Below are positions 1,521-3,144 of a DNA stretch of 15,562 nucleotides, in pieces. The DNA comes from Clostridia bacterium. GTDB taxonomy: Bacteria; Bacillota; Clostridia; Christensenellales; Aristaeellaceae. The position numbers were made by a program, and so were the translations under genes. Location: positions 1-15,562 of the forward strand of contig JAZLIA010000047.1 in NCBI GenBank assembly GCA_045617125.1. The letters run 5' to 3'. The first letter of the stretch is position 1; each line of letters opens with the position of its first letter. The notes under the pieces were generated by a model. It saw only the letters and a program-made list of their open reading frames with translations, searched no databases and had not been told where the DNA came from.

Positions 1521-2849
1521 TCAACAGTTATCTTCGTCCGTTTTTTCTTCAGACGATTCCGTGGGATATAATGTATTTTTCATTTTCCCTTTTACTCCGG
1601 ACAATAGATTTTTACGAATATAATCTGTGCAATTTGACGCAGTATCACATCTTTTGAGGCGTATACATTCCGGATAATAAAAGCAGTCAGTGCATACTTC
1701 CTCCGGCGGAAAACATTCCTTAAACGATTTTCGCTCTTTTGCATCGACAAGGTTGTCCCAAATATCTCCGATATAATCAGAATCGGTATAATGCTCGCAA
1801 GCACCGAGTTTTCCATTCGGCAAGACCGTTACGGAGGTATCGCTGTCCGCCTGACAGCGATTCAATCTCAAACGATTGGACACATAGTTTTTAGACTGCA
1901 GGCAATACCTTTGAATCAGTTCGTCCAAAGCTTTCGATTTTTCATAAACTTCGGCGTATTCCTTATCCGATTTTTCCATAATCTGATAAATCAGCATGGA
2001 ATATACCCTTAAATATTTGTTTGTGCCGAAACGCCGGTAAAGCTGATGAACAAGCGCAATAAGGTCATCGGCGTTGACCGTACTGACATTCAAACGAATT
2101 TGAACATATATTTCATTTTCAAGACACTTTTTGATGTTTCCAAGCACAGTTTCAAACGGATTTGTATCATCATAAATATAATTTTTTGTTTGATTATATA
2201 TTTTTTCCGTTCCGTCCAGCGTAATCTGCACCATTTGCAGATTCCACATTTTTTTTGCTCTGCTGATGATCTCATCATCAAGAAGATAACCGTTTGTAGT
2301 CATATGAGAAGTGAAAGTTATATTTTTCTCTTTTAGCGCTTTTGAAATAATGTCTATCGCTTTTGTATTATATAATGGTTCGCCGCCGAACCAAGCTAAA
2401 TTTACAGGTTTTCCGCCGCAATGCTCCGCAATAAACTCCGCGGTTTTCAGTGCCGTTTCCTCGTTCATCGGATAACGCTTTGCATCTTTTTCAAAGCAAT
2501 AAAAACATCTCGCATTGCAATCTGTGGTCGTGAAGATAGTATAGCTTGTGATATGCTCCGATTTCTTCTGCATAGCACGCAAGGTAAACCGAATTTGGTC
2601 AACAAGCTTCATATCGTTTGTTTCCTCCGGCACGATGAACCATTTTTCATAAAGCTCCGGCAAATCAAACAAACGGGAATATTCCTCTTTGGAAAGGAGC
2701 ATCATTTCCCGCGTGAGGGTATGGAAAAGCAACACGTCGTCCTCTGCCGCTTCGGATACGACATAATGCATCAGGCGATAGTTTTCGCCCGTTTTCGCTT
2801 TCCCGAGAAGTTTAATAACATTATCCGCTGCGGGAATAATCGTCTTCAT
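1521..2849 (-). CDS. Radical SAM / SPASM-domain peptide maturase
   Basis: 442-aa ORF. CNARCFYC (C111/C115/C118) is the CxxxCxxC motif and follows a roughly 110-aa N-terminal extension. WFGGEPLYN is the SAM-binding GGE motif. The C-terminal region is Cys-rich and resembles an auxiliary-cluster (SPASM/twitch-like) domain: CQADSD...GACEH...CTDCFYYPECIRLKRC...C. Confidence 0.92.
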   Translation of the reverse strand: MKTIIPAADNVIKLLGKAKTGENYRLMHYVVSEAAEDDVLLFHTLTREMMLLSKEEYSRLFDLPELYEKWFIVPEETNDMKLVDQIRFTLRAMQKKSEHITSYTIFTTTDCNARCFYCFEKDAKRYPMNEETALKTAEFIAEHCGGKPVNLAWFGGEPLYNTKAIDIISKALKEKNITFTSHMTTNGYLLDDEIISRAKKMWNLQMVQITLDGTEKIYNQTKNYIYDDTNPFETVLGNIKKCLENEIYVQIRLNVSTVNADDLIALVHQLYRRFGTNKYLRVYSMLIYQIMEKSDKEYAEVYEKSKALDELIQRYCLQSKNYVSNRLRLNRCQADSDTSVTVLPNGKLGACEHYTDSDYIGDIWDNLVDAKERKSFKECFPPEEVCTDCFYYPECIRLKRCDTASNCTDYIRKNLLSGVKGKMKNTLYPTESSEEKTDEDNC

Positions 2850-2907
2850 AGATTTTGTCCCTTTCCGTTCCCTATAAATAGGACCGCAACAACGCTTGAT
2901 TTTAAAC

Positions 2908-2973
2908 GTAAAAAAGAGACCATTCTATTCTTGGACACAGTTCGACTGTGCGGATAAATAAAATCGTCTCTTA
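2908..2973 (-). terminator. Long imperfect hairpin plus U-tract in the leader of the RiPP operon (candidate intrinsic terminator / attenuator)
   Basis: On the minus strand, AAGAGAC (2972-2966) pairs perfectly with GUCUCUU (2920-2914). The stem extends through AUUUUAUUU/GAAUAGAAU (with G.U pairs) and is capped by CACAGU-CGA-ACUGUG (2950-2936). It is followed by UUUUACGUUU. The 5' arm overlaps the TAA of the small repeat-containing ORF. Confidence 0.4.
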
Positions 2974-3144
2974 AAATGCATGAATATTTTTTCTGAAGGT
3001 AATGACAAAAGAACGCAGTTCGGCTACGCTTGCTTGCTTGCTTGCTTGCTTGCTTGCTTGCTTGCTTGCTTGCTTGCTTGCTAAAAGTCTGCCCGTCTGC
3101 GTCACGCCTGTCAACTCCTTTTTTGTAAATTTTTTGTATTTCAT
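2971..3144 (-). CDS. Hypothetical small ORF containing the tetranucleotide repeat (57 aa from ATG 3144; 44 aa from the SD-preceded GTG 3105)
   Basis: Translation: MKYKKFTKKELTGVTQTGRLLA(SKQA)4SVAELRSFVITFRKNIHAF. There is no SD before the ATG. AAGGAG lies 9 nt before the in-frame GTG at 3105. Whether it is translated is uncertain; its interest is regulatory. Confidence 0.3.
   Translation of the reverse strand: MKYKKFTKKELTGVTQTGRLLASKQASKQASKQASKQASVAELRSFVITFRKNIHAF
3028..3082. repeat. Perfect tetranucleotide microsatellite (GCTT)x13 plus GCT (AAGC on the minus strand)
   Basis: Read directly from the sequence: 13 uninterrupted GCTT units at 3028-3079 followed by GCT at 3080-3082. Confidence 0.98.

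Follow-up and report, generated by a model that had tools for sequence, protein, structure and literature searches.

The window analysed here is a stretch of 15,562 nucleotides (nt) that makes up the whole of contig JAZLIA010000047.1 (C47), which belongs to the metagenome-assembled genome GCA_045617125.1 of a Clostridia bacterium of the Aristaeellaceae (2.57 Mb in 149 contigs, 79% complete, 52% GC). Its minus strand carries an operon for a ribosomally made and post-translationally modified peptide (RiPP), the first gene of which encodes a radical SAM maturase. The region upstream of this gene forms a leader that contains a short open reading frame (ORF) with a long simple sequence repeat (SSR) of the unit AGCA, followed by a predicted intrinsic terminator. 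We examine this leader as a candidate phase-variable switch of the operon. Its parts are, in the direction of transcription:

3228-3200, minus strand: promoter P1, with TTGGCT at 3228-3223, a spacer of 17 nt, TATAAT at 3205-3200 and a TG before the -10 element (10/12 in a consensus scan, plus the extended -10).
3120-3103, minus strand: initiation region of the leader ORF as read from the sequence, with the Shine-Dalgarno (SD) sequence AAGGAG at 3120-3115, TTGACA at 3114-3109, GGC, and GTG at 3105-3103.
3114-3086, minus strand: "P2", a sigma-70-type promoter geometry (TTGACA 3114-3109, 17 nt, CAGACT 3091-3086) lying over the leader SD and start codon.
3082-3028, minus strand: perfect SSR (AGCA)13.75 in the leader ORF, encoding (Ala-Ser-Lys-Gln)n (Tandem Repeats Finder: period 4, 13.8 copies, 100% matches).
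3030-3004, minus strand: small hairpin AGCGTAG/CTGCGTT with a T-rich tail, just 3' of the repeat; terminator-like, -6.7 kcal/mol, z = -0.55, not significant.
3026-3024, minus strand: early stop TAG, used at n-1 and n+2, where n is the present number of units (leader rebuilt and translated); predicted OFF frame.
2973-2971, minus strand: TAA, at which the leader ORF ends with the present n = 13.75; it precedes the terminator stem by 3 nt (leader translation).
2970-2910, minus strand: intrinsic terminator, a rod-like hairpin (2970-2916) with T6 behind it (2915-2910); -25.6 kcal/mol, z = -6.0, 0/200 shuffles as good.
2849-2846, minus strand: ATGA, in which the TGA of the long leader frame (n+1, n-2) overlaps the maturase ATG (leader translation).
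2849-1521, minus strand: radical SAM/SPASM RiPP maturase of 442 amino acids (aa), gene 1 of the operon (PF04055, 4e-15; PF13353).

The leader ORF can be read from the GTG at 3105-3103 that follows the SD, or from an ATG at 3144-3142 that has no SD of its own. An earlier note, made from the letters of the DNA alone, had placed both starts in one frame, which is correct. In this frame the repeat is translated without stops. We rebuilt the leader in silico with -3 to +3 AGCA units and translated it from ATG 3144, and the outcome follows the three frames that the note had laid out. The present frame ends at TAA 2973-2971, not only at n but also at n-3 and n+3. One unit fewer stops translation right after the repeat, at TAG 3026-3024, and n+2 does likewise. 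At n+1 or n-2 the frame stays open for 59 codons past the repeat and ends at TGA 2848-2846, forming the ATGA with the maturase ATG at 2849-2847. Relative to the start of the terminator stem, TAG 3026 lies at -56 nt, TAA 2973 at -3 nt and TGA 2848 68 nt past the end of the stem.

Two further statements of that note were set against shuffled sequences. The hairpin that it had called terminator-like, at 2970-2916 with its T6, is more stable than every one of the 200 shuffles to which it was compared. Its estimate that the long frame would stay open by chance with a frequency of a few percent agrees with the 3.1% of dinucleotide-preserving shuffles (repeat end to ATG) in which the frame is open to the ATGA. 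The ATGA itself follows trivially from the Met-Lys start of the maturase (ATG AAG), and the informative part is the openness of the frame. The end of the repeat is separated from the maturase ATG by 179 nt, and no frame leads to a leader-maturase fusion.

We propose, with a probability of roughly 0.7, that the leader is a slipped-strand phase-variation switch upstream of the RiPP operon that acts by ribosome-mediated transcription attenuation. Transcripts from P1 would carry the short leader ORF, with its SD AAGGAG and GTG 3105, and the (AGCA)n tract within it. As the unit has 4 nt, every unit gained or lost would shift the ribosome to another frame past the repeat. In the first frame (n-1, n+2), the ribosome would stop at TAG 3026, more than 50 nt before the terminator, leaving 2970-2910 free to fold and the operon OFF or low. 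In the frame of the present n, a ribosome at TAA 2973, 3 nt before the stem, would cover the 5' arm and block the terminator, resulting in read-through and an ON state. In the last frame (n+1, n-2), the ribosome would cross the whole terminator to TGA 2848 at the maturase ATG, giving an ON state with possible re-initiation by coupling. The assembled allele is predicted to be ON, because its present stop lies 3 nt before the terminator stem. The earlier note had suggested a switch by translational coupling or anti-termination in which the long frame alone is ON. Anti-termination stands as the general mechanism, and coupling through the ATGA becomes an optional extra. The single ON state does not stand, as the present frame is probably ON too, which makes one OFF and two ON frames.

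A switch of this design is known from Streptococcus gallolyticus, in which the pil1 and pil3 pilus operons are preceded by (GCAGA)n repeats in a leader-peptide ORF and then by a stem-loop terminator (Danne 2014, PMC3894217). As that report describes it, a leader with 22 repeats ends 39 bp short of the hairpin and the majority of transcripts are terminated, while an out-of-frame gain or loss yields a longer leader with its stop in or after the hairpin, so that the ribosome blocks the terminator and expression is high (PMC3894217). The switch is backed there by mutants of the start codon and the stop codon and by deletion of the terminator (PMC3894217). Among natural isolates, expression is mostly high where the leader ends directly before the hairpin or extends through it, and the low-expression frame has its stop 28 nt or more upstream of the terminator (PMC3894217).

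All the sequence-level features of the pil1 type are present in the window: a leader ORF with SD and start codon that contains the repeat, a unit that is not a multiple of 3 nt (3n), a terminator and the frame layout. By analogy, the same mechanism would operate here and would set the expression level of each frame. On the account given in the consulted sections of the S. gallolyticus report, the two loci share the order of parts (promoter, leader ORF equipped with a ribosome-binding site and a non-3n repeat, stem-loop terminator, operon). They also share the division into one frame that stops well before the terminator (low) and others that stop just before, inside or after it (high). Some leaders of the same construction in Oscillospiraceae, which we call cassettes, even have the pil1 unit, CAGAG being equal to GCAGA. 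Unlike S. gallolyticus, the host of the window belongs to a strictly anaerobic gut lineage of Clostridia, its unit is a tetranucleotide, and the target is a radical SAM RiPP operon rather than pili. The window also has the ATGA overlap with the first gene, which makes coupling possible. Finally, its leader is a conserved portable cassette with a promoter-like element over the ribosome-binding site, which the consulted sections do not describe for pil1.

Our literature search found no extension of the SSR leader-peptide mechanism beyond S. gallolyticus. To the extent covered by these sources, the leader-peptide/terminator SSR switch has one published example, proven for the S. gallolyticus pili, and the window would be a further case. 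The host lineage, the RiPP operon as target, the tetranucleotide unit, the conserved portable cassette and the possible third, coupled state are new here.

Other known types of control share individual features with the leader. In the contingency loci of Haemophilus and Neisseria, tetranucleotide repeats (CAAT, GCAA, GACA) lie inside the 5' end of the regulated ORF, and the OFF state yields a truncated protein. The window resembles these loci in its long, perfect tetranucleotide tract, in the slipped-strand mispairing and in the frame-dependent ON/OFF logic, and even the units are alike (GCAA, CAAT, GACA). It differs from them in that the repeat belongs to a leader ORF of its own, 179 nt upstream, and in that termination versus read-through is the output predicted. 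An in-ORF contingency locus is ruled out here, as the repeat is outside the maturase coding sequence and no frame fuses the two. A switch of the hif, opc or vlp type, with the SSR in the promoter spacer, is likewise ruled out, since the repeat lies downstream of both P1 (3228-3200) and P2 (3114-3086). In trp-type attenuation of Escherichia coli, the position of the ribosome on a leader ORF also decides whether an intrinsic terminator forms. There, the ribosome is placed by the supply of charged tRNA together with alternative antiterminator hairpins, whereas in the window it would be placed heritably, by the reading frame. We found neither regulatory codons nor a clear antiterminator in the window leader.

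Covariance models of Rfam give 0 matches at E <= 1 on either strand across 2700-3400, so that no known class of structured RNA leader (such as a riboswitch or a T-box) is recognised. Between P1 and the start of the leader there is a small hairpin with a T-run, which is not significant as a terminator (z = -1.3). Closure of the repeat into a loop, by TTGACA...TGTCAA or other pairing of the flanks, would depend on pairing that is short and inconsistent across cassettes. Rho-dependent termination at a C-rich repeat was set aside, on the reasoning that the units AGCA and CATA (the latter from an orthologous leader) have no YC dimers.

Among species-representative genomes, the relatives of the maturase have at most 46% identity and all lack a repeat. 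Closer orthologues were drawn from a large protein collection and their contigs fetched. Their leaders are, with the maturase identity to the window:

L024, 92%: (ACGGC)8.4 followed by (CAAT)12.75, at the same leader position as the repeat of the window.
L025 and L026, 86%: the contig starts with (AGACA) of at least 6 units, then a terminator, an extra ORF of 175 aa and the maturase.
L027, 83%: plain promoter leader, repeat absent.
L028, 77%: plain promoter leader, repeat absent.
L029, 75%: (CATA)10.
L030, 69%: repeat absent.

The equivalent leader site thus carries four different repeat sequences across four close relatives of one operon. The terminator is kept in each repeat-bearing leader type that was folded, with predicted energies of -40.7 kcal/mol in L024 (z = -5.65), -26.8 kcal/mol in L029 (z = -6.2) and -28.0 kcal/mol in L025. 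The small hairpin just after the repeat, which in the window is possibly a pause site or a minor terminator, has a counterpart of -10.9 kcal/mol (z = -3.7) in L024. The frames of L024 divide into one that stops 1 codon past the repeat and two that cross the terminator, one of these reaching an ATGA overlap. Those of L025 extend for 1, 13 and 33 codons, the second ending ~9 nt before the hairpin and the third beyond the terminator. All 3 frames of L029 stop ahead of the terminator, the longest at a TAG 4 nt before the stem. One immediate stop together with at least one frame that reaches the terminator is universal in the orthologues with repeats, while the long frame is frequent and not universal. 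The expectation of the earlier note, that the long frame and its ATGA be conserved, is therefore borne out in part: both recur in L024 and in the non-homologous L041, L070 and L080, and are absent in L029.

These leaders also bear on whether the peptide itself matters. With its SD and start codon and its position at the head of the operon, the repeat ORF could encode a functional small repeat protein of the RiPP pathway, of 44-100 aa depending on start and frame, such as an immunity or accessory peptide. The peptide is not conserved, the orthologues encoding repeats of ASKQ, ARHGT/NQSI or HTYI with unrelated tails, and its sole Pfam match is PF08496 at 16.7 bits against a cut-off of 27 bits; we regard this explanation as very improbable.

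Two side observations concern the makeup of these leaders. A segment of ~60 nt between the terminator and the maturase SD (AAATCAAG..TGTTGCGGTYCTATT...AGGGAACGGAAAGG; window 2850-2909, L029 5945-6000) is common to the window and L029; it has no match in Rfam. L024, with 92% maturase identity, has unrelated sequence in place of this segment, which is kept in L029 at 75%. The leader is a mosaic. In L025 (173-700), the extra 175-aa ORF between the switch and the maturase is hydrophobic and may encode an immunity or membrane protein; a remnant of it lies upstream of the L027 maturase.

The leader of the window belongs to a type that is spread across the family. The 2.57-Mb genome has only two long SSRs, and both are downstream of the same cassette motif. 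The second (L049, C38:1-152) reads AAGGGGTTGACAGTCATG..TAGAAT and then (GACA)29.5 into the contig end, its regulated gene being unassembled. A strand-neutral search for (NNCA)x10 across 301 family genomes finds long CA-containing tetranucleotide repeats (CAAT, CAGG, GACA, AGCA, CATA) in 16 of them, that of the window included. Matches of the cassette type have a common 5' layout: a strong promoter, an SD-like AAGGGG, (C)TTGACA, 3 bases, ATG, ~20 nt and the repeat. On the 3' side, a stop follows within a few bases (GCATAA, GATAA, GCGTAG), then a T-run, 20-60 nt, a strong intrinsic terminator, an SD and the gene. Most related cassettes have, 35-110 nt before the leader starts, a strong promoter equivalent to P1, and the T-run after the early stop is common among them. 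Behind the cassettes lie RiPP precursor genes or operons and genes for lipoproteins and for secreted or membrane proteins, and the relatives that carry the cassette are Oscillospiraceae.

The 5' motif AGGGG-N0-1-TTGACA-NNN-ATG gives 53 matches in 43 of 401 family genomes, versus 2 for the reversed control. The cassettes reached from these matches and from 20 further regions have long repeats, 2-4 units or none. L068, for example, is repeat-less and has a leader ORF of 13 codons that is closed in frame by the conserved stop. Where there are repeats, their periods are 4, 5, 7 and 10, and multiples of 3 were never seen. In each of the 11 cassette-type matches from the strand-neutral search, the sense strand is the one rich in CA and poor in T. 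Variation in the post-repeat stop is confined to TAA, TAG and TGA, and a start codon ([AG]TG) stands 3 nt after TTGAC(A) in 14/14 cassettes found without use of the 5' motif. The periods that are never 3n, the sense-strand bias and the restriction of the post-repeat position to stop codons argue that the repeat is read by ribosomes.

The same distribution has to be set against the idea of a neutral microsatellite that expanded in a non-essential leader, with a coincidental frame pattern and no regulatory effect. The window gives one repeat length in a single assembly, the close operons L027, L028 and L030 work without a repeat, and a chance probability of ~3% for the long open frame is not extreme. 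Neutral expansion would not account for the only two long SSRs of the genome both following the cassette motif. Nor would it account for the recurrence of different repeats at the same site, both in the orthologues and in dozens of cassettes whose flanks are conserved and which share the sense-strand bias and the frame logic. We judge neutral expansion to be quite unlikely.

The frame logic was quantified on 21 complete cassettes, in which the terminator was placed by folding and the first stop classified for each frame; a frame was said to reach the terminator if its stop lay <=16 nt before the stem, inside the stem or beyond. In 21/21 cassettes, one frame is closed by a stop (TAA, TAG or TGA) at 0-14 nt past the repeat. 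Of the 42 remaining frames, 39 reach the terminator, compared to 33.5 +/- 2.3 under the null, and 39 is reached by 18 of 2000 shuffles. A stop codon that starts 1-4 nt 5' of the stem is found in 12 of the 21 cassettes (2.0 expected), the TAA of the window among them; with one homologous group collapsed, such stem-foot stops number 7/15 versus 1.6 expected (P = 4e-4). A long frame ending in ATGA at the downstream start occurs in 5/17 (window, L024, L041, L070 and L080), with 1.16 expected (P = 0.002). The idea that the frame sets how far the ribosome reaches is supported because it matches the proven S. gallolyticus pil1/pil3 mechanism and because the 21 cassettes have the same frame logic.

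The cassettes contain a further regularity, in the P2 geometry that overlies the leader SD and start. A hexamer with A2 and T6 lies exactly 17 nt after TTGAC(A) in all 14 of the cassettes found without the motif. At other spacers the corresponding counts are 0/14 for 13-16, 18, 21 and 22 nt, 2/14 for 19 and 4/14 for 20. The stretch upstream of the geometry is A/T-rich, and the repeat begins 0-4 nt after the hexamer (loci including the window, L024, L029, L034-L049 and L110).

Should P2 be a real promoter, its transcripts would begin in the first repeat units, and the repeat could act on transcription or as part of a 5' untranslated region (UTR), its length tuning promoter escape, mRNA stability or long-range pairing between the flanks. 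Repeat effects in the 5' UTR have been proposed for loci such as Moraxella uspA2. Besides the -35/-10 geometry in 14/14 cassettes and the A/T-rich stretch upstream of it, this reading draws on cassettes like L042, which have no P1 within 160 nt upstream of the repeat, and on the partial complementarity of the repeat flanks (GACGCAG / CTGCGT in the window). It leaves unexplained the invariant start codon and SD, the post-repeat stop, the non-3n periods and the stops at the foot of the terminator, and a transcript begun in the repeat could not escape the strong terminator. A repeat that acts through transcription or the 5' UTR is therefore unlikely in our view. For the attenuation switch, P2 may serve as a pause site or, in some other role, as a second promoter, or it may be a relic. 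Transcripts from P2 cannot serve attenuation: initiated within the repeat, they would not contain the start codon of the leader.

It is possible, as a more tentative and rather doubtful extension, that the family shares a portable phase-variable attenuator cassette, employed for RiPP operons and for secreted or surface proteins, in which P2 is a working part of the switch. P2 could act as a sigma-dependent pause that detains RNA polymerase directly after the emergence of the ribosome-binding site and thereby synchronises ribosome and polymerase, or as an additional promoter from which polymerases are sent across the repeat. With the ATGA frame included, the switch would have three states and a means of coupling that is undescribed for any attenuator.

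Variation of the repeat number is seen in a related subfamily. When metagenomes are scanned with the 5' flank of its CAGAG cassettes, 13 contigs are recovered, and this flank is followed by about 2 to 19 units across genomes and metagenomes. L120 and L124, from different metagenomes, are ~98-99% identical over the first ~235 nt and differ by exactly one CAGAG unit. We infer that the AGCA tract likewise varies in length within the population of this locus. An exact look-up of the PqqD protein encoded in the window returned 0 sequences, and a metagenome scan with the conserved 5' end of the maturase gave 0 matches.

Several points weigh against the attenuation switch. That P1 and the leader start are used, and that transcripts terminate at 2910-2915, is in each case a prediction. 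The AGCA tract is known at one length, as no second contig of the allele was found. Some cassettes (e.g. L042) show no P1 in the 160 nt read upstream of the repeat, and the invariant P2 geometry, which attenuation does not explain, suggests a second promoter. L029 has no long frame, and translational coupling is therefore not essential. The enrichment of terminator-reaching frames over shuffles is only moderate; moreover, many cassettes share descent, so that their counts are not independent and the probabilities given above are indicative only.

To our knowledge, SSR phase variation is textbook matter for a few mucosal pathogens, and hardly any cases are documented from the strictly anaerobic Clostridia, the dominant group in animal guts. 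The locus suggests stochastic switching of the production of a radical-SAM-modified peptide, and the conserved cassette suggests the same control of many surface and secreted proteins across a whole bacterial family. If this is true, strain-level gene content from metagenomes understates functional heterogeneity, with identical genomes being ON or OFF, and the leader repeat lengths could be read from metagenomes as expression states. The cassette is compact (~300 nt) and modular. As it occurs linked to different genes directly at the SD, it lends itself to direct tests and could serve again as a stochastic switch in Gram-positive hosts.

This joining is seen in L066 and in L120 versus L124, in which near-identical cassettes have different downstream genes and diverge directly after the SD (GGAGGCAATT). 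It suggests that the cassette moves or recombines as a portable module, since near-identical copies meet different genes immediately after the SD. In L121 (an ERZ809504 contig), an (AGAGC)11.2 leader crosses the terminator and fuses in frame to a secreted esterase-like gene, forming an ORF of 448 codons; such a leader-gene fusion is a frame state not present in the window. The (GACA)n tracts of L035 (G284:C75), L039 (G127:C41) and L037 (G017:C58) are of a different type, lacking both the 5' motif of the cassette and its terminator. Behind them lie repeated fragments of genes (..MGVPITF(L/M)D(K/R)YNPDQF..) that resemble DNA-methyltransferase or restriction-modification genes, and these may be classical in-ORF phase-variable restriction-modification systems within the same bacterial family.

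The genes of the operon that follow the maturase are:

1469-1314, minus strand: precursor peptide, 51 aa.
1235-978, minus strand: PqqD chaperone.
994-275, minus strand: ScmC-like protein.
278-3, minus strand: signal-peptidase-like protein, cut by the contig edge.

In NCBIfam, the top matches of the maturase are RiPP maturase families, every one far under its cut-off. A literature search on ScmC together with RiPPs yielded nothing useful. The RiPP product is probably bacteriocin-like, costly and socially relevant. The genome encodes a paralogous radical SAM maturase with 39% identity at C24:51109-52341, and the 420 nt upstream of it lack both the repeat and the cassette motif.

The gene order of the operon is identical in the orthologous contigs. 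In the window, the operon sits in a low-GC island on the minus strand, with ~40% GC compared to ~55% elsewhere. The step from ~41% to ~55% is close to 3500 (window about 3500-3535), at the upstream edge of the leader. The flanks of the orthologous operons are unrelated, with aro genes in L029 and TnpV-like and other small genes in L024. Given the GC jump near 3500 and these unrelated contexts, the operon and its switch look horizontally mobile.

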